Shown here piece by piece: positions 28,536-37,108 of a DNA stretch of 64,000 nucleotides; within the stretch, counting starts at the first letter, position 1, and the number at the start of each line of letters is the position of its first letter. Both the position numbers and the translations under genes were made by a program. The DNA lies in NCBI GenBank assembly GCA_964518305.1, contig CAZFDK010000009.1:13754-77753 (forward strand), written 5' to 3'. The DNA is from an uncultured Gemmatimonadota bacterium. GTDB taxonomy: Bacteria; Gemmatimonadota; Gemmatimonadetes; Palauibacterales; Palauibacteraceae. The notes under the pieces are model-generated. The model worked only from the letters and a program-made list of their open reading frames with translations. It was not told the origin of the DNA and made no database searches.

Positions 28536-28626
28536 CACCGGTCCTCTTGAGAGGCCCGGGGTGTGCCATCGGCGCACGCGCCCCGGCATTCGCGCCGAAT
28601 TCGACCGAAGATGCATGGAGGTTAGG

Positions 28627-29316
28627 TTGAGCGGTCTCACGGTAGCAGCACTCTGGGCACTTCAGCAGGGCGGTCAGGGCAGTCCCCGACTCGGGGCCGG
28701 CCAGGAGCTGAACCTGGGCCAGATCTGGGAATCCGGCGGCTTCATGATGTGGCCGCTGGGAGCGGCCCTCGGCATCGGGCTCCTCATCATCCTGTGGAAG
28801 TTCATCGACATGCAGATCAAGTCGTCCAGGACCCGGAGCTTCCTGGACGAGGTCGACGAGCTCATCGTGGACGAGCGCCTCGGCGAGGCCCTCGCCATGT
28901 GCGAGGAGTCGAAGTCGCCCGCCGCCTCGGTCCTCCAGGCCGGCCTCCAGCGCCGGGACGAGGGCACCGAGCGGGTGACCCAGGCCATCGAGAACGCCGG
29001 AGCCATTCAGATGGTCAGCCTGGAGAAGGGGCTCGTCTGGCTCGCCACCATCGCCAACGTCGCCCCCCTCATGGGCTTCCTGGGTACCGTGATCGGGATG
29101 ATCCAGGCCTTCCAGGCCATCGAGATCGCCGGTGAGGTCCAGGCGACGCTGGTCGCCGGGGGCATCAAGGTGGCGCTGATCACGACGGCCACCGGGCTCA
29201 CGATCGCGATCCCGATGAACATCATGCACAACTACTTCGTCAGCCAGGTGGATCAGCTGGTCATCGACATGGAGGAGAGCACCCAGAAGATGATTGACGT
29301 GGTCCACGAGGGCTGA
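28627..29316 (+). CDS. MotA/TolQ/ExbB proton channel family protein (start at TTG 28627 after GGAGG, or ATG 28615)
   Basis: GGFMMWPL, LATIANVAPLMGFLGTVIGMIQAF, GIKVALITTATGL.IAIP. Confidence 0.93.
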   Translation: MSGLTVAALWALQQGGQGSPRLGAGQELNLGQIWESGGFMMWPLGAALGIGLLIILWKFIDMQIKSSRTRSFLDEVDELIVDERLGEALAMCEESKSPAASVLQAGLQRRDEGTERVTQAIENAGAIQMVSLEKGLVWLATIANVAPLMGFLGTVIGMIQAFQAIEIAGEVQATLVAGGIKVALITTATGLTIAIPMNIMHNYFVSQVDQLVIDMEESTQKMIDVVHEG

Positions 29317-29493: not shown

Positions 29494-32259
29494 TTGAGCG
29501 ACGAGCTCCCAGACCCCGAATTCGACCGGCCCACTCTCTTCCTGGTGGACGGCTACGCTCTCATGTACCGGGCGTTCTACGCCATGATCAGCCGGCCGCT
29601 GACCACTTCCAGCGGCGAGAACACCTCGGCCCCCTTCGGGCTCACCCGGTTCCTTCTCGACCTGCTGGAGGAGCACGACCCGGACTACCTCGGGGTGGTC
29701 TTCGACGCCGGACACAGTTTCCGGGAGGAGGTGCATCCGGAGTACAAGGCCACGCGACGGAAGATGCCGGAGGAGATGGAGGCGTCGATTCCGAGGTGCC
29801 GCGCGCTGGTCGAGGCGTTCAACATCCCGGTGCTGGAGGAGGAGGACTGGGAGGCCGACGACGTCATCGGCACACTGGCCGAGGAGGCCGAGGAGGAGGG
29901 GCTGCAGACGGTCATCATCTCCGGCGACAAGGACTTCTACCAGCTCGTCGGCCCCCATACCTGGCTGCTGAACCCGGGACGCGGCGGGGCGTCGCCGGTG
30001 CCGGAGGAGTGGGTGCGGCCGGAGAATGCCGAGGAGAAGCTCGGCGTGCCCCCGGGTCAGGTGACCGACTACCTGGCGCTCATCGGCGACAGCTCGGACA
30101 ACGTCCCGGGGGTCGCCGGCATCGGCGAGAAGACGGCGCCGAAGCTGCTGGACCGCTGGGGCTCCCTGGAGGAGGTCCTGGAGCACGAGGACGAAGTGGA
30201 GCTCACGCGGGCCCGGAACGCCCTCGAGGGCCACGAAGGGGACGCCCGCCTGTCGAAGCAGCTGGTCACGATCCGGCGGGACGCCCCGCTGGATCTGGAC
30301 CTGGAGTCGCTACGGCGGCAGGAGCCGGACTGGGAGCGCCTGCGGGAGCTGTTCCTGGAGCTCGAATTCCACAGCCTGGCCCGCGAGTACGTCCCGGACG
30401 ACGAGGGCGAGGGCCCGGCGGAGGGCGAGGAGGAGTACGACCTCGTCGGGACCGCCGCCCGCGTCGACGAGCTCGTTGACCGCTGGCGGGACGCGGAGCT
30501 CGTGGCGGTGGACACCGAGACCACGTCCACTGATGCCATGCGGGCGGAGCTGGTGGGCGTCTCGGTCGCCGACGAGGCCGGTCGCGCCTGGTATCTGCCG
30601 TTCGGCCACGTCTCCGGCGCCCAGGACGAGCTCTTCGAGAGCGTGGACGTGGAGGAGAACCTCCCGTCGATCACCGGCCCCGAGATGGAGGCGCTCCGGG
30701 ACTTCCTGGCCGACCCGGACGTCCCGAAGGTCGGCCACAACATCAAGTACGACCTGCTGGTCCTCGAGCGGGCCGGCGTGGAGCTGGCGGGCATCCGCTT
30801 CGACACCTCGGTGGCCGCCTACTGCGCCGATCCGGGGCGCAGGGAGTACGGCCTGGACGTACTCGTGATGGAGAAGCTGAAGCGGAAGCTCACACCCTAC
30901 GACGAGGTGGCGGGGAGCGGCTCCGACGAGGTCTCCTTCGCCGAGGTGCCGGTGGAGGAGGCGGTGGTCTACGCCTGCGAGGACGCCGACTTCACGCTGC
31001 GGCTGGCCGGCGTGCTGGCGGAGGAGCTCGAGCAGCACGAGCAGGAGGAGATCTTCGAGGATCTCGAGGTGCCGCTGATCCCCGTGCTGGCGGCCATGGA
31101 GCGGGCCGGGATCGGACTGGACGGGGAGGTCTTCGAAGAGCTGGAGGACCGCATCACCCGCGAGCTGGAGCTGGTCGAGGAGGAGATCGCCAAAGTGGCC
31201 GGCGAGCGGGTCAACCTCCGGTCGGTGCCCCAGCTCCGGGAGCTGCTCTTCGAGGATCTGGGGCTGCCCGTGAAGAAGCGGACGAAGACCGGGCCCTCCA
31301 CCGACGAGAGCGTCCTCACGGAGCTGGCCGAGGAGGGACACGAGGTCCCGCGTCTCATCCTGAACTACAGGGAGCTCGACAAGCTGAACTCCACGTACGT
31401 CTCCAAGCTCCCGGGAATGGTGAACCCGGATACGGGCCGTCTGCACACCAGCTTCAACCAGACCCGCGCTGCCACCGGCCGCCTCTCGTCCTCCGATCCG
31501 AACCTCCAGAACATCCCGATCCGGTCGGTGCTGGGACGCGAGGTGAGGAAGGGCTTCGTACCGGAGGAGGGGTGGCGCTTCCTGGCCGCCGACTATTCGC
31601 AGGTGGAGCTCCGGGTCCTGGCGCACCTGTCGGGAGACGAGTCGTTCGTCACCGCCTTCCGGGAGGGGCGGGACATCCACCGGGAGACGGCCGCCCGGAT
31701 TTTCGGCGTGGAGCCGGAGCAGGTGCAGGGCGGGATGCGCGAGCAGGCCAAGACCATCAACTACGCCACCATCTACGGCCAGGGGCCGGGAGCGCTCGGC
31801 CGGCAGCTGGGGATCTCCCGCTCCCGGGCCGAGGAGTTCATCGAGCAGTACTTCGAGCGCTTCTCCGGAGTGGCCGAGTACCTGGAGCGAATGAAGGAGA
31901 CCGCCCGCGACCGGGGCTTCGTGGAAACGCTCTCCGGCCGCCGGCGCTATATCCCGGAGATAAAGTCCCGGAACCCCGGCGTGCGCGGGTTCGGTGAGCG
32001 GACGGCCACGAATTCGCCCATCCAGGGGACGGCGGCGGACATGATCAAGATCGCCATGCTGCGCCTGCACGACCTGCTCCCGGCAGGCGTGCGGATGCTC
32101 CTCCAGGTGCACGACGAACTGGTCTTCGAGGTCCGCGAGGATCAGGTGGAGGAGGCCCGCGACCTCGTCCGGGAGGAGATGGAGGAGGCCATGGACCTGG
32201 ACGTGCCCCTGGAGGTGGAGATCGGCGTCGGCGAGAGCTGGTTCGCCGCCAAGCCCTAG
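29494..32259 (+). CDS. polA: DNA polymerase I
   Basis: LVDGYAL.YRAFYA 5'-exonuclease, EADDVIGT, GDSSDNVPGV, VDTET 3'-exonuclease, TGRLSSSDPNLQNIP, ADYSQVELR, LQVHDEL. Confidence 0.99.
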   Translation: MSDELPDPEFDRPTLFLVDGYALMYRAFYAMISRPLTTSSGENTSAPFGLTRFLLDLLEEHDPDYLGVVFDAGHSFREEVHPEYKATRRKMPEEMEASIPRCRALVEAFNIPVLEEEDWEADDVIGTLAEEAEEEGLQTVIISGDKDFYQLVGPHTWLLNPGRGGASPVPEEWVRPENAEEKLGVPPGQVTDYLALIGDSSDNVPGVAGIGEKTAPKLLDRWGSLEEVLEHEDEVELTRARNALEGHEGDARLSKQLVTIRRDAPLDLDLESLRRQEPDWERLRELFLELEFHSLAREYVPDDEGEGPAEGEEEYDLVGTAARVDELVDRWRDAELVAVDTETTSTDAMRAELVGVSVADEAGRAWYLPFGHVSGAQDELFESVDVEENLPSITGPEMEALRDFLADPDVPKVGHNIKYDLLVLERAGVELAGIRFDTSVAAYCADPGRREYGLDVLVMEKLKRKLTPYDEVAGSGSDEVSFAEVPVEEAVVYACEDADFTLRLAGVLAEELEQHEQEEIFEDLEVPLIPVLAAMERAGIGLDGEVFEELEDRITRELELVEEEIAKVAGERVNLRSVPQLRELLFEDLGLPVKKRTKTGPSTDESVLTELAEEGHEVPRLILNYRELDKLNSTYVSKLPGMVNPDTGRLHTSFNQTRAATGRLSSSDPNLQNIPIRSVLGREVRKGFVPEEGWRFLAADYSQVELRVLAHLSGDESFVTAFREGRDIHRETAARIFGVEPEQVQGGMREQAKTINYATIYGQGPGALGRQLGISRSRAEEFIEQYFERFSGVAEYLERMKETARDRGFVETLSGRRRYIPEIKSRNPGVRGFGERTATNSPIQGTAADMIKIAMLRLHDLLPAGVRMLLQVHDELVFEVREDQVEEARDLVREEMEEAMDLDVPLEVEIGVGESWFAAKP

Positions 32260-32439
32260 AATCGAAGAGTCGATCGAGAACCCCGTCCGGACGCCCCCCG
32301 GGGTCTTCCCGCGCCGACCGGGCCGAGGCGAGAGACCCGGCCGACGTCCGGCGAACGGAACTCCACCCGGCGGTAGGGAGTTTCACCATACTCCGATCGT
32401 GCTGATCTCCCACGGCGGGAGCGGGCGCGAGCCGCAACC

Positions 32440-32844
32440 ATGCCGAGGACGATGGACCCCCGACTCCTGAGAGCAGCTGTCAGCGCCCTCCTGGGCGCGA
32501 TCTTCCTCGCCGGGCTGGCCGGCGAGACGTACGGCGTCCACGACTGTCCCCATCATCACCGGGACGCTCGGGGCCCGGCGACGAGCCACGCTTCCGAGGC
32601 GGGCGGGGAGACGGCCGGCGGGGCCGGCCACCTCCCCCTCGAGGCTCCTCCCGACGGCCCGTGCACCTGCGTGGGCAACTGCCACGCGGCCGGCGTCGCG
32701 CTGAACGCGGCGGCGGCGCCGACCCTGCCGGCGGCGCTGGAGGCCGACCTGGCCGCGGGGTCGCTCGGCGACGACGGGCGCGTCCCGCGGCCCGCCGCCT
32801 ACCTCCTCCCCTTCGCCAACGCACCTCCCGTAATCCTGGTCTGA
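32440..32844 (+). CDS. Putative copper-sensing leader protein (DUF2946 / CruR / CutF-like)
   Basis: N-terminal hydrophobic helix, HDCPHHH, CTCVGNCH, C-terminal PFANAPP; first gene before a copper TonB receptor. Confidence 0.65.
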   Translation: MPRTMDPRLLRAAVSALLGAIFLAGLAGETYGVHDCPHHHRDARGPATSHASEAGGETAGGAGHLPLEAPPDGPCTCVGNCHAAGVALNAAAAPTLPAALEADLAAGSLGDDGRVPRPAAYLLPFANAPPVILV

Positions 32845-33039
32845 CGACCCGGGGCTCCTCCCGGGACGGGCGCCCCGACCGGGGCGCCGCAGCCGAATTC
32901 GCCACCGGACGACCGCACCGCCGCGCACCTCGCGGGCCCGGCCGATGCCTCCCGTGGAGGGGGGTGGGCCGCTCAGGCGCGGAACCGGACCCCACCAGGG
33001 CCGCCGGCGGTGGGGAGAATGCCGAAGGGAAGGTTCAGG

Positions 33040-35424
33040 ATGCCGAAGAACACCGATGTATCGGATCACGGAGTCGCGAGAAAGAGACGAGATACCGACA
33101 CCCGCCGGTTCGCAGCCGGCCGGGCGCTCATCGCGGCGGTCGCGGCGCTGCTCATGACCGGCGTCGGCCCCGCCGTCGCCCAGCAGGCAGCCGTCACCGG
33201 GCAGGTGGTGGCCGGCGATTCCGGGGAGCCGCTCCCCGGCGCCACCGTGCGCGTGGAGGACACGGAGCTCGGAGCCGTGGCCCGGGAGGAGGGGACGTTC
33301 CGGATCGGACCCGTCCCGGCCGGGGAGTATCGGGTGACGGTCTCGGCTCTCGGTTATCGGAACGCCACGCGGAAGATCGACGTGGAACGCGGCTCCCGAA
33401 TCGAGCTCCGGTTCGAGCTGGAGCCGCACCCCGTGGAGATGCAGGGCATCGAGGTCTCGGTGCTTCGCCCGGACCTGGAGCCGGAGGCTCGACTCCAGGC
33501 CGAAAAGATCCAGCTGGAGAACCCGAAGGACTCCGGCGAGCTGCTCCGGAGCCTCCCCGGCGTGAGCGGAGTCCGGCGCGGCCCGCTGGGCGTCGACCCG
33601 GCGGTCCGGGGACTGCGGGAGACCGAGGTGGGGACCTATCTGGACGGGACGAGGATGTTCCCGGCGGGCCCGGCACGCATGGATTCCCCCCTCACTCACC
33701 TGGATCCCAGCGCCATCAGCGACATCGAGGTGGTGAAGGGGCCGTACGCCCTGACGCTCGGGGCCGGGAACCTCAGCGCCGTCCGGGTCACGACCCAGAG
33801 CTTGCCCGCCCGGGGGCGCGAGGGCCTGCGGGGCCGGCTCTCCTCCGGCTACGACGCCAACCTGAACGCCGCCGAGACCACGGGACGACTCTCGGGTCGC
33901 AGGGGACGAATCTCGTATCGGGCGCTGGGCGCCTGGCGGCAGGGAAGCGATTACGAGTCCGGCGACGGGTCCCTGATCCCCGGCGATTACGAGTCCGCCG
34001 AGGGCCGCGGCAAGATCGGCGTGGACGTGAGCGAGAGCTCGAAGGTCGTCCTGGCAGGCGGCTACCAGGACCAGGGCCCCATCGATTATCCCGGGCGTCT
34101 CCTGAACGCCGAGCTCTTCCACACCCTGAACCTCAACGGTCGCTGGGAGCTGGACCGGAACGAGGGAGTCCTGCGGCAACTGGAGGTCATGGCATACGTG
34201 AACGACGTGCAGCACACCATGGACAACGGGGGCAAGCCCACGTCACGTCCCATGGAGGGGCGCATGCCGCCCTTCGCCCTGGACGTCCGGGTGGACGCCG
34301 GGGTGAACGTCTGGGGGGGACGCCTCAACTCCAGATGGGCGGCCGGTGAGGCCTGGCGGTTCGAGGCCGGTGGCGACGTGTACAGCGCCACGCGGAACGC
34401 CGTCCGCACGATCAGCCGCGACAGCGACGACACGCTCCTGTTCGAGGATCTGATGTGGCCCGATGCGACGATCGCCGACGCCGGGGGCTACGGTCGGGTG
34501 ACCCGGCGGTTCGGCGACCACGTGCGCCTGTCGGGGACGGCCCGCGTGGATCGCGTACGGGCGGAGGCGGATACCGCCAGCACCTTCTTCCGCCGGAACA
34601 CGACGGGATCGCTGGAGCAGGACGAGACGAACCTCAGCGGCGCCGTGACGTTCGGATACGACCTGAGCCGCTACTGGACGGTGAGTCTCGGTGCCGGTTC
34701 CGCCGTGCGGACGGCCGACGCCACCGAGCGGTACTCCGACAGGATCCCGGCGACCAAGGCACAGACCAGCGCCGAATTCATGGGGAACCCGGACCTGGAG
34801 CCGGAGCGCAGCAATCAGGCGGACCTGTGGATCGAGGCCAGCTACCCGCGGCTGGCCCTCCAGCTCAACGCCTTCGCCCGGCACATGGACGAGTACGTCA
34901 CGATCGGGGCCACGGATCTCCCGAAGCGGCTCCCGCTGAGCCCGGAGACCGTCTTCCGCTACGTGAACGGCGAGGCGGAGTTCTGGGGCTTCGAGGTGTC
35001 CGCCGACGCGGGGGTCACCGAGAGCCTCACGCTGAGCGCCGCGACGAACTACCTGCGGGGCCAGAATCTGACCCGGGACCGGCCGGTGATCGGGGTCGCC
35101 CCGATGCGCGGCAGCCTGGGGGCCCGGTTTGAACCGCCGCAGGGCCGCTTCTTCGTGCAGGGCAAGATGACGGGCGTCGCCGACCAGGACCGGGTGGCCC
35201 GGGAGCTGGGGGAGGGCGTCACCGACGGGTACGTGACTGCCGACCTCAAGGGTGGGGTCCGGATGTACGAGGGGCTGCGCCTGCGGCTCGGTGTGGAGAA
35301 CCTGGGCGACGAGCAGTACGTGAACCACCTGAACGCCGAGAACCCCTTCACGGGGAGCCGGATTCCGGAGCCGGGCCGCGTCTTCTTCGCGGACCTGAGC
35401 TGGGCGTTCGGGCCCGTGCGATGA
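33040..35424 (+). CDS. TonB-dependent receptor, OprC-like copper receptor with N-terminal CarboxypepD_reg-like domain (start 33019 or 33040)
   Basis: Signal peptide, GEPLPGATVRV, plug DPAVRG..PARMDSP..IEVVKGPY, HTMDN, GNPDLEPE, GVENL..Y.NHL, PEPGR. Confidence 0.88.
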   Translation: MPKNTDVSDHGVARKRRDTDTRRFAAGRALIAAVAALLMTGVGPAVAQQAAVTGQVVAGDSGEPLPGATVRVEDTELGAVAREEGTFRIGPVPAGEYRVTVSALGYRNATRKIDVERGSRIELRFELEPHPVEMQGIEVSVLRPDLEPEARLQAEKIQLENPKDSGELLRSLPGVSGVRRGPLGVDPAVRGLRETEVGTYLDGTRMFPAGPARMDSPLTHLDPSAISDIEVVKGPYALTLGAGNLSAVRVTTQSLPARGREGLRGRLSSGYDANLNAAETTGRLSGRRGRISYRALGAWRQGSDYESGDGSLIPGDYESAEGRGKIGVDVSESSKVVLAGGYQDQGPIDYPGRLLNAELFHTLNLNGRWELDRNEGVLRQLEVMAYVNDVQHTMDNGGKPTSRPMEGRMPPFALDVRVDAGVNVWGGRLNSRWAAGEAWRFEAGGDVYSATRNAVRTISRDSDDTLLFEDLMWPDATIADAGGYGRVTRRFGDHVRLSGTARVDRVRAEADTASTFFRRNTTGSLEQDETNLSGAVTFGYDLSRYWTVSLGAGSAVRTADATERYSDRIPATKAQTSAEFMGNPDLEPERSNQADLWIEASYPRLALQLNAFARHMDEYVTIGATDLPKRLPLSPETVFRYVNGEAEFWGFEVSADAGVTESLTLSAATNYLRGQNLTRDRPVIGVAPMRGSLGARFEPPQGRFFVQGKMTGVADQDRVARELGEGVTDGYVTADLKGGVRMYEGLRLRLGVENLGDEQYVNHLNAENPFTGSRIPEPGRVFFADLSWAFGPVR

Positions 35425-35506: not shown

Positions 35507-36274
35507 ATGAGACAGTGCGACGAGAACCCGGCCGCCGTGCGCCGCCGTGCGTGCGGCGGATCCCCGGGTGCCCGATCGGTGCTCCTCGCGGTCGGCGCGG
35601 TGCTCCTGGCGTCGGGCGCCGTGGCCTGCGGCGGAGACGGCGCCGGCCGCGGCGGCGTCTCCGCCTCCCCGAACAGCGGCCTGCACGGAGCCGTCCTTCC
35701 GGAGGCCCGACCCAAGGGCGACTTCACGCTCACGGCCACCGACGGCGAGCCCTACGACTTCCGGCGCGAGACCGACGGCGAGGTCGCGCTGCTCTTCTTC
35801 GGCTACACCCACTGCCCCAACGCCTGTCCGGTTCAGATGGCCACCCTGGGGGCCGCCTACGAGAAGCTTCCCATGGAGCTGCAGCAACGGGTCGAGGTGG
35901 TCTTCGTCTCCACCGATCCGGCCCGGGACTCCCTCCTCCGACTACGGAGCTGGCTGGACAACTTCAGCGAATCATTCGTCGGGCTCCGCGGGAGCCGTGA
36001 CGAGGTGAACCGAATCATGCAGAGCTACGGCCTCCCCCCGGCGCAGATCGACACAGCGGCCTCAGGGCCCGGCAGTCCCGGGGACGGGTACACGGTGGGG
36101 CACGCCGCCCACGTGCTCGTCTTCACCCCCGACGGCCGGCTGCGCCTGATGTACCCCACCGGTACGCGACAGAAGGCGTGGGTCGAGGACCTCCGCGAGC
36201 TGGCCCGCGAGGGCACGGCCGCCGTCACCGACGGCGGTGACGGGCGTTCGGGCTCCGCGCCGGGAGGGAGCTGA
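35507..36274 (+). CDS. SCO1/SenC copper chaperone (lipoprotein)
   Basis: AVAC lipobox, FFGYTHCPNACP (CxxxC), DPARD, YTVGH conserved His. Confidence 0.93.
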   Translation: MRQCDENPAAVRRRACGGSPGARSVLLAVGAVLLASGAVACGGDGAGRGGVSASPNSGLHGAVLPEARPKGDFTLTATDGEPYDFRRETDGEVALLFFGYTHCPNACPVQMATLGAAYEKLPMELQQRVEVVFVSTDPARDSLLRLRSWLDNFSESFVGLRGSRDEVNRIMQSYGLPPAQIDTAASGPGSPGDGYTVGHAAHVLVFTPDGRLRLMYPTGTRQKAWVEDLRELAREGTAAVTDGGDGRSGSAPGGS

Positions 36275-36277
36275 GCC

Positions 36278-37108
36278 GTGCAGTGGTGGTGCTCGGCCCA
36301 GTCGGGTTACTGGAGCTGGGCGTGGCAGCCCTACGCGGGTGTCTGGATCCTGGTGGCCGGCCTGGCGCTGGCCTACTGGCTCACGTGGCGCCGCCTCGGG
36401 CCGGAGGAGCGGGCGGGCGGGGAGCCCTTCTCCTTCGCCCTGGGCCTCTTCCTGCTCTGGGTGTCCCTGGACTGGCCGCTGGCCGCCCTGGGCGCCACCT
36501 ACCTGGCCACCGCCCACATGGTGCAGTACACGCTCGTCGCGATGGCGGCCGCGCCGCTCATGCTGCGGGGGATCCCGGACGTAGCCCTGCGTCGGGCCGT
36601 CGATGCGGGGGCGGCGGGGCGGCTCCTGGAGACGGCGACGCGCCCGGTCGCGGCGTTCCTGCTCTTCAACGTGGTGCTGGTCGGCACCCACTGGCCCGTG
36701 GTCCTCGACACGCTCATGGCCACCCAGCTCGGCTCCTTCGTCCTCGACGCCCTGTGGCTCGTGAGCGGCGTGCTCTTCTGGTGGCCCATCGTCTCGCCGG
36801 TCCCCGCTCGGCCGGGCTTCCGGGAGCTCTGGAAGCTCGCCTATCTCTTCCTGAACACCATCCCCGCCACCATCGTGGGCCTCATGCTGGTCTATGCCGA
36901 GTACCCGGCCTACGCCACCTACGAGCTGGCGCCCCCGGTCTTCGGGGCGCCCGCTCTGGCCGACCAGCAGGTGGCGGGTCTGGTGATGAAGTTCGGCGGC
37001 GGGCTCATCCTGTGGTCCGTCATGGGCGTCATTTTCTTCCGCTGGTACCGGGAGGAGTCGGAGGAGGCGGGCGCCGCCGTGCCCGCGGACGTCGGGGCGA
37101 GCAGCTGA
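36278..37108 (+). CDS. ctaG: Cytochrome c oxidase assembly factor CtaG (caa3-type)
   Basis: HMVQY, HWP, FWWP, DQQVAGLVMK motifs; multi-TM. Confidence 0.85.
   Translation: MQWWCSAQSGYWSWAWQPYAGVWILVAGLALAYWLTWRRLGPEERAGGEPFSFALGLFLLWVSLDWPLAALGATYLATAHMVQYTLVAMAAAPLMLRGIPDVALRRAVDAGAAGRLLETATRPVAAFLLFNVVLVGTHWPVVLDTLMATQLGSFVLDALWLVSGVLFWWPIVSPVPARPGFRELWKLAYLFLNTIPATIVGLMLVYAEYPAYATYELAPPVFGAPALADQQVAGLVMKFGGGLILWSVMGVIFFRWYREESEEAGAAVPADVGASS

Follow-up and report, generated by a model that had tools for sequence, protein, structure and literature searches.

A candidate copper-responsive leader peptide with an arginine-less C-terminal proline motif ahead of a TonB receptor-SCO1-CtaG operon in an uncultured Gemmatimonadota bacterium

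The DNA analyzed here (the "window") is a 64,000-nucleotide (nt) stretch of contig CAZFDK010000009.1 from an uncultured Gemmatimonadota bacterium, with a G+C content of 71%. The element of interest is a short open reading frame (ORF), termed the leader, that precedes genes for a TonB-dependent receptor, a SCO1/SenC copper chaperone and a CtaG-type assembly factor. In a preliminary description made from the letters alone, this ORF had been presented as a copper-sensing leader of the CruR/CutF type that ends in a non-canonical "NAPP" arrest motif. By direct count, the 134-amino-acid (aa) ORF, an N-terminal helix, the cluster HDCPHHH, a Cys motif and NAPP (32818-32829) were all present as claimed, and family scans returned the TonB receptor, SCO and CtaG genes named as its downstream neighbors. 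The features are collected in Table 1.

Table 1. Features of the leader and its surroundings (window coordinates; C>G, excess of C over G)
Feature	Position	Strand	Basis or remark
ExbB-like gene	28561-29316	+	MotA/TolQ/ExbB family
polA	29494-32259	+	
Leader ORF	32440-32844	+	134 aa; TGA stop at 32842-32844
N-terminal hydrophobic helix, export signal or signal anchor (predicted)	32458-32532	+	aa 7-31; AlphaFold2 helix; family conservation
First metal cluster (putative), HDCPHHH	32539-32559	+	aa 34-40
Second metal cluster (putative), CTCVGNCH	32662-32685	+	aa 75-82; contains CxxxC (C77-C81)
Second linker	32686-32817	+	Poorly conserved sequence, fixed length; 45 residues between C81 and N127
C>G tract (rut-like)	32780-32877	+	Centered on the C-terminal motif; 78-nt windows from 32780-32800 have C/G 1.9-2.2, top 1% of the plus strand
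C-terminal motif YLLPFANAPP, candidate arrest sequence	32800-32829	+	aa 121-130; conservation, codons
Hairpin 1	32845-32868	+	Directly after the stop codon; arms 32845-32853/32860-32868, 89% complementary; kept in same-genus genome G001
Hairpin 2	32869-32888	+	Arms 32869-32877/32880-32888, 9 nt, perfect
Remaining spacer	32889-33039	+	C-rich at 32890-32949; purine-rich Shine-Dalgarno-like GAAGGGAAGG at 33024-33033
TonB-dependent receptor	33040-35424	+	N-terminal CarboxypepD_reg domain, Plug and barrel
SCO1/SenC copper chaperone	35507-36274	+	102 bits
Caa3-type CtaG, cytochrome c oxidase assembly factor	36278-37108	+	Family scan

A gap of 180 nt separates polA from the leader ORF, and the gene after CtaG is on the opposite strand. 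The ExbB-like gene, just 5' of polA, stands ~3 kb ahead of the TonB receptor operon. For the receptor, the nearest named family was TIGR01778 (TonB-copper; NCBIfam), at 244.5 bits and under the cut-off of 472. The spacer after the leader stop measures 195 nt if the receptor starts at ATG 33040 and 165 nt if it starts at GTG 33010, against an earlier estimate of ~170-195 nt, and the two hairpins first placed at 32848-32862 and 32866-32888 were found close to those positions (Table 1). Hairpin 1 is not followed by a T-run and was not called terminator-like; hairpin 2 is also present in G001, where a single G-to-U change leaves it paired. Consensus scans of 32100-33200 gave no sigma-70-like promoter and no intrinsic terminator. 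The Rfam scan returned two sub-threshold chance matches only, both on the minus strand, and no known RNA family. The genome encodes Rho (660 bits, contig C92) and elongation factor P (EF-P; 223.5 bits).

A word-indexed search yielded 19 close homologues of the leader, and a 24-sequence profile was run against 1.84 billion cluster representatives, of which 1508 (mainly Gemmatimonadota) matched at E <= 1e-3 and 369 at E <= 1e-10. The 166-protein family set used below consists of the 19 close homologues and the new ones among the 150 listed of those 1508 profile matches. When one genome per species was searched, 21 loci were confirmed: 16 in Gemmatimonadota or a subgroup of it, two in entries named "uncultured bacterium" and three in Gammaproteobacteria metagenome-assembled genomes (MAGs). 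In a sample of the phylum, 32 of the 201 genomes and 22 of the 99 genera carried a family copy (E <= 1e-6); the distribution within the phylum is thus patchy. Locus L006 was omitted from alignments (it is partly masked), L021 is a duplicate of L001, and identical leader 3' parts were counted once.

The leader is conserved in frame among these relatives, and its G+C content at third codon positions (GC3) is 0.89, as in real genes here, and 0.80 and 0.61 in the other two frames; both properties take it beyond a chance ORF. Long open frames that overlap the leader or the receptor, at 32383-34215 (-), 32480-32995 (-) and 32661-34349 (+), look like the usual by-product of 71% G+C and not like genes. 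The true start is probably ATG 32452, which would give a product of 130 aa, because homologues begin at the equivalent of Met5. The N-terminus of the product is basic. In an AlphaFold2 model built from 150 sequences (predicted template modeling score 0.39), the helix at residues 7-31 was the sole structured element, and the predicted local distance difference test values of successive blocks across residues 1-30 were 92, 96 and 86. The strongest 15-aa Kyte-Doolittle window scored 2.27, starting from residue 12, and hydropathy indicated a comparable hydrophobic N-terminal segment in 155 of the 166 family proteins.

Both putative metal clusters are strongly conserved, and the region between them is a low-complexity linker. 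Residues H34, C36, H38, H39, C75, T76, C77, G79, C81 and H82 are invariant in the 19 closest homologues, as are Y121, L123, P124, A126, N127, P129 and P130 in the tail. C75, C77, G79, C81, P129 and P130 are invariant in 24 sequences, and in the 150-sequence alignment C75 and C77 remain so, with C36, H39, G79 and C81 nearly invariant. NAPP itself (aa 127-130) is followed by VILV and the stop codon. The preliminary description had proposed to test the conservation of P(F/Y)ANAPP and of its distance to the stop. P124, A126, N127, P129 and P130 of this string are invariant in the 19 closest homologues, but at the level of the family P-P alone is invariant; the distance is kept throughout, P-P lying 1-9 residues (mostly 2-4) from the C-terminus in 165 of 166 proteins. 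Among those 165, the motif tetrapeptide is NAPP in 60, NGPP in 39, TAPP in 14, APPP in 9, HGPP in 8, TGPP in 7, QAPP in 7, GPPP in 6, LGPP in 5, NPPP in 3 and HAPP in 3, with 4 singletons. With the first Pro of the pair taken as position 0, Asn stands at -2 in 102 proteins, Thr in 22, His in 11, Ala in 9 and Gln in 8; Y or F occupies -8 in 140/165, L occupies -6 in 135/165 and P occupies -5 in 144/165. The family consensus tail is [YF]-L-L-P-[FY]-[AP]-[NTH]-[AG]-P-P. Judged from these alignments, the conserved unit is [YF]LLP[FY][AP]x[AG]PP rather than NAPP, because P-P is the only invariant part of the tetrapeptide.

The second cluster and the tail are held at a nearly constant distance. Measured between the final Cys of CxCxGxC and position -2 of the tail, the spacing has a median of 46 residues (standard deviation 1.0, range 41-49, n = 164); for the first linker, between the metal clusters, the corresponding figures are 38 (8.1, 22-76, n = 137). 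A linker of free sequence and fixed length that ends a few codons before the stop is what one would expect of a ruler that spans from a sensing site to the peptidyl-transferase center.

Two further features lie in the mRNA. NAPP and the Val that follows are encoded by AAC GCA CCT CCC GTA. The earlier remark that GCA and CCT are uncommon here is supported by the four neighboring genes (polA, the TonB receptor, SCO1 and CtaG), in which CCT accounts for 0/128 Pro, GCA for 7/229 Ala and GTA for 5/189 Val codons. The same four NAPP codons are kept in G001. Two sets of relatives were compared: a first set of 22 distinct leaders, and a second set from the phylum scan, with three of its 29 loci (L063, L068 and L075) unparsed by the motif rule and outside the counts. 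In the first set, the first Pro of P-P is CCT in 14/22 leaders vs. 9/144 other Pro codons of the same ORFs. The second set gave 14/27 vs. 17/184 (Fisher p = 7e-7), a value that overstates the case because the relatives are not independent. The other feature is a depletion of G. The C/G ratio reaches 2.22 in the 78-nt window 32790-32867 (top 0.2% of plus-strand windows), and 32800-32829 contains 18 C and 2 G. A C-rich tract had been placed in the spacer; such a tract does exist, but it is most pronounced across the end of the ORF, and the spacer segment 32890-32949 has 29 C and 18 G. In the first set, C exceeded G in the 30 nt before the first Pro codon in 22/22 leaders and in the 30 nt from that codon in 21/21 (mean C 0.53 and 0.47, mean G 0.13 and 0.22); in the second set, it did so in 27/27 and 27/27. 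The bins flanking the motif had C of ~0.40 and G of ~0.34.

The 3' end of the leader is also predicted to pair with the Shine-Dalgarno (SD) region of the receptor gene. Positions 33020-33033 are complementary to leader codons at 32805-32818 (14 nt, 86%), and this pairing is present in both the minimum-free-energy and the centroid structures. For seven of nine loci with a clear start codon, the prediction pairs 6-13 of 15 SD-region bases with the final 45 nt of the leader; of 135 other 45-nt segments taken from these ORFs, only 14 reach that level.

The genomic context agrees with the earlier expectation that homologous leaders would precede outer-membrane receptors. In the first set, whose neighbors were identified by tblastn, Pfam and GC3-guided ORFs, a TonB receptor is downstream of L001, L002, L029 and L033 (tblastn) and L035 (Pfam); L042 was counted with them by likeness to L035 only and was not scanned itself. 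Eight leaders, including a second copy in the window's own genome, are followed by a His-rich outer-membrane barrel, one by a BBP2 porin and one (L030) by MbnP, and one locus had no family. One downstream barrel passed the Pfam cut-off of Phenol_MetA_deg; those of L034 and L036 matched below it, and the ORFs of L037, L040 and L041 corresponding to the weak L036 match were left out of the scan. In the second set, a TonB receptor is downstream in 17/26 parsed loci (6 by tblastn, 11 of 19 further ORFs by the Plug domain) and a barrel in 1/26, with no family at E <= 0.001 in 8/26. The barrels downstream of L005, L008, L009, L011, L026 and L028 carry long His/Asp/Glu-rich stretches after the signal peptide and a conserved G-L-H-F-x-H-P-L; these His-rich barrels may represent an undescribed metal-uptake porin family. 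Operons of cruR homologues are described as holding TonB receptors (including the TIGR01778 type), Sco, PCuAC and MbnP/H (PMC9426467). A recurrent downstream protein without a Pfam family (L065, L072, L073) has the mature N-terminus Q-[FY]-E-W-T-[SA]-S-R-P-D-G-H-A-P-I-G-V-M-G-[ED]-H.

The second copy in the same genome (G000 contig C1:75465-75728 (-), equal to L022:1501-1773 (-)) is shorter and lies on a different contig from the leader. It is without the export helix and the first cluster (HxCPHHH) but keeps CTCVGSCH, a 46-residue spacing and T-G-P-P-A-A (YLLPYPTGPPAA), and the barrel that it precedes has the motif GLHFAHPL.

CruR (Bp2923) of Bordetella pertussis, a DUF2946 protein encoded in the operon cruR-bfrG(crtA)-bp2921, is one of the closest described counterparts. 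Like CruR, the leader is a small ORF with an exported product (export being predicted here), placed first before a copper-related TonB receptor; both have a Cys metal motif 45 residues before x-A-P-P, which is itself 3-4 residues from the stop. In CruR-type proteins, the 45 intervening residues are held within 1-2 across more than 2000 DUF2946 proteins, and the addition of five residues breaks regulation (PMC9426467). Both proteins are poorly structured, and both genes are followed by a long, GC-rich spacer (162 nt in CruR, 195 nt here). The C>G tract runs from the 3' part of the ORF into the spacer in both; the "bubble" that starts in cruR and ends in its spacer maps to a rut site (PMC9426467). 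Finally, the CruR-controlled receptor has been linked to the copper supply of haem-copper oxidases (PMC12914433), into which SCO1 and CtaG at the present locus fit. The differences concern the motifs and the setting. The metal motif here is CxCxGxCH (CxC plus CxxxC) with an additional HxCPHHH, whereas that of CruR is CXXC; Asn precedes A-P-P, with P-P four residues before the end, whereas CruR has RAPP about three before the end; and the present family has the extended conserved [YF]LLP[FY][AP] upstream of the motif. The first Pro codon is rare here, whereas frequent codons are used in the RAPP of CruR (PMC9426467). SCO1 and CtaG take the place of the PepSY_TM protein of the CruR operon, the host belongs to Gemmatimonadota and not to Proteobacteria, and the leader does not match PF11162 (DUF2946).

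The leader ORF does not reach the PF11162 gathering score (23.7 bits), but DUF2946 was the commonest weak match of its relatives (30/150 at E <= 1, best 4.1e-4; the next family had 4). A bridging Gemmatimonadales protein, L044 (…CCCPACVGAC…YLLPLAIGPPALHA), scored 24.4 bits against PF11162 and 36.5 bits against the hidden Markov model of the leader family; classical RAPP proteins scored -1.2 to 1.4 against the latter, and reversed decoys scored at most 6.0. In a language-model atlas, the nearest clusters were unnamed ones of Gemmatimonadota and Planctomycetota. A Bacteroidota cluster automatically named DUF2946 (with Pfam DUF6660 in 96% of its members) was the 30th among the 30 matches listed, with a score of 0.95, and may be taken as a lead. 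The three Gammaproteobacteria-titled MAGs hold both types: classical DUF2946-like leaders (L046, L048, L052) with CxxC, a spacing of likewise 45 residues and SRAPP, and members of the present family (L036, L037, L041) with CTCAGEC…PYLLPFANAPPLS. The original proposal of a CruR/CutF-like version with a different Cys spacing and with Asn in place of Arg is supported, the ruler and the gene context being in agreement with it, but the link to DUF2946 is distant; for working purposes, the leader is filed as CruR/CutF-like, in what appears to be a distant unnamed branch of the superfamily and not as a DUF2946 member. In the literature searched, no paper describing the leader family was found, although the supplements of PMC9426467 (Table S1) and PMC9973294 (Fig. 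S6, File S1) may list it; "Gemmatimonad" has no occurrences in the main texts of PMC9426467, PMC9973294, PMC12992588 and PMC12914433.

Taking these lines of analysis together, we consider it likely that the leader is a cis-acting, CruR/CutF-like regulatory peptide that sets the expression of the TonB receptor-SCO1-CtaG operon according to copper supply. The nascent leader would be targeted for export by its N-terminal helix, and the ribosome would pause or arrest at YLLPFANAPP while Pro129 (the rare CCU codon) occupies the P site and Pro130 the A site. At that point the CxCxGxCH cluster, 45-46 residues back, would be just out of the exit tunnel, and its occupancy by copper would set the dwell time of the ribosome. 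A stalled ribosome would mask both the C-rich, G-poor tract and the CCUCC-rich codons complementary to the SD, and the operon would be expressed. Were the ribosome instead to terminate and leave, transcription could be ended within the 195-nt spacer by Rho, which would then be able to load, the SD could be sequestered, or both could happen. Because the operon serves uptake, the expected polarity is CruR-like: ON, through a stalled ribosome, when copper is lacking, and OFF, through its release, when copper is present. We infer the arrest, the binding of copper, this polarity and the roles of Rho and SD occlusion from the features described above.

Several results weigh against this assignment. 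At the level of homology, the leader ORF had no Pfam match at E <= 1 and no NCBIfam match, and PF11162 had no match anywhere in the genome at E <= 10. A comparison in hhalign of the 150-sequence family with 14 classical CxxC...SRAPP proteins gave a probability of 0.2%, although, with a comparison set of 50-92% identity and a gappy family alignment, this result does not settle remote homology. At the level of RNA, the predicted fold of the leader 3' end and spacer was about as stable as that of shuffled sequences (z = 0.23). When the last 15 codons were recoded synonymously, most of the SD pairing was kept at the nine loci, the fractions of recodings that equaled or exceeded the natural pairing being 0.06, 0.00, 0.15, 0.10, 0.43, 0.58, 0.57, 0.30 and 0.41; the pairing may therefore be a by-product of the amino-acid motif. 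Further objections concern Arg, which is at -2 (R[AG]PP) in none of the 166 family proteins. The RAPP/RAGP peptides (ApdA, ApdP, ApcA, SecM) resemble the leader in having a C-terminal x-A/G-P-P near the stop of an upstream ORF whose product is exported and which governs the gene after it, with Ala and Gly alternating at -1. They differ in that the present family has Asn, Thr, His or Gln in place of Arg and that the genes downstream here are not Sec or YidC components. The Arg of RAPP/RAGP inserts into the peptidyl-transferase center and is irreplaceable in the peptides tested so far (PMC10951233, PMC12992588): arrest was lost in ApcA, ApdA and ApdP with each of the 19 substitutions, and R139A abolished the arrest of CruR in vitro (PMC12992588). 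The missing Arg speaks against a hard arrest of the classical RAPP type. In an approximate proteome (1667 GC3-chosen ORF proteins, ~65% of the genome), N[AG]PP was observed 6 times vs. 6.6 expected; it is not depleted, in a comparison of low power, and by themselves the four residues probably do not make a strong arrest signal.

The arrest may instead be a context-dependent polyproline pause to which the conserved upstream residues and the rare codon lend strength. This is possible because CutF works with GPPP and EF-P (preprint 10.1101/2025.02.05.636593), and EF-P is present here. Tentatively, and with distinctly less confidence than in the regulatory role itself, we suggest that [YF]-L-L-P-[FY]-[AP]-[NTHQ]-[AG]-P-P could be a distinct, Arg-independent class of arrest sequence that relies on the upstream aromatic residue, Leu and Pro and on the rare CCU in the P site. 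Gated by metal at a CxCxGxCH cluster 46 residues away, it would serve as a copper switch for outer-membrane uptake genes in Gemmatimonadota and some other phyla, either in parallel to CruR or far diverged from it.

A purely translational output like that of CutF fares best among the alternatives, but we regard it as unlikely. An EF-P-sensitive polyproline pause at A-P-P, prolonged by copper-dependent export events, would then only unmask the receptor SD, and Rho would play no role. CutF of Rhodobacter capsulatus is the precedent: it has a CxxxC motif, ends in PEPEGPPPRL, and needs EF-P and SD unmasking (PMC9973294; preprint 10.1101/2025.02.05.636593). With that ending, the preliminary description was mistaken in its premise that CutF has a RAPP-type motif. 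The leader shares with CutF a CxxxC (C77-C81), a proline motif without Arg and a stalled ribosome predicted to relieve SD occlusion, and it has the 14-nt complementary repeat and the segment-specific SD pairing noted above, in a genome that encodes EF-P. It also falls under the working definition of CutF-like proteins (PMC9973294), which asks for fewer than 150 aa, a PP among the 15 C-terminal residues, an export signal at the N-terminus and a gene on the same strand no more than 1000 nt downstream: the leader has 134 aa, PP at -6/-5 from the end, a hydrophobic N-terminus and a 195-nt spacer. Ozturk et al. (2023, PMC9973294) reported 29 CutF-like clusters with varied Cys/His motifs in several phyla. 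Those authors argue, however, that the melting of a stem-loop by a stalled ribosome suits short spacers, whereas the spacers here are long (53-270 nt in the nine loci). In addition, the recoding control gave no clear sign of selection on the SD pairing at the RNA level, and the sharp C>G tract, present in all of the leaders, matches what has been described for the Rho-dependent cruR system. The operon is also one for uptake, as with CruR, whereas CutF controls a detoxifying multicopper oxidase and copper increases its stalling.

Considerably less probable is that the leader works as an exported protein that binds copper in the service of the receptor, for instance as a chaperone or metal buffer in the periplasm or anchored in the membrane, with a C-terminal motif that is a protein contact or processing site and causes no arrest. 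The export helix, the two Cys/His clusters and the common orientation with copper-handling genes would suit such a protein, as would the absence of the Arg required in known arrest motifs and the lack of N[AG]PP avoidance in the approximate proteome. On the other hand, no fold is predicted past the signal helix, and the sequence between the motifs is unconserved, yet its length is fixed to +/- 1 residue. Rare codons and G depletion exactly at the motif are features of mRNA and decoding, not of a mature protein. Moreover, the paralogue in the same genome keeps CxCxGxCH, 46 residues and the PP tail without the export helix or the first cluster.

Very improbable, finally, are a chance ORF in GC-rich DNA, which the long spurious ORFs on other frames might suggest, and a methanobactin-like precursor of a copper-binding ribosomal natural product, which the Cys-rich peptide and the MbnP downstream of L030 might suggest, given the in-frame conservation of the motifs over 1508 representatives, the GC3 of the leader frame, an operon (TonB receptor, SCO1, CtaG) with no gene for a modifying enzyme, and the shortness of MbnA precursors, which are unlike a leader of 130-134 aa with a signal helix.

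Metal-sensing nascent peptides are a recent finding (CruR in 2022, CutF in 2023) and have been studied in two Proteobacteria only; as a copper-responsive regulatory peptide, the leader and its family would extend the principle to a poorly studied phylum. The ruler of 45-46 residues has been kept while the sensor and the candidate arrest motif have changed, which makes the family a natural experiment in the requirements of the mechanism. Should N[AG]PP and its upstream context arrest ribosomes, the rule that Arg is irreplaceable would be limited to one subclass. With its Arg-less candidate arrest motif, rare-codon signature and exact ruler, the leader is a good test case. The rare-codon and G-depletion signatures are simple marks that could help to locate further such leaders.

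Two minor observations concern other copies of the leader. At L070 (G168:C1, ~3634329-3634691, minus strand), two family leaders (…HSIPFAIPPPQGY and …QLPYAVPPPPSC) stand in tandem ahead of a single TonB receptor. In the genome of the window, a second Rho-like gene (G000 contig C1:65435-66559 (+); 485 bits vs. TIGR00767, cut-off 509) lies ~9 kb from the second leader copy.

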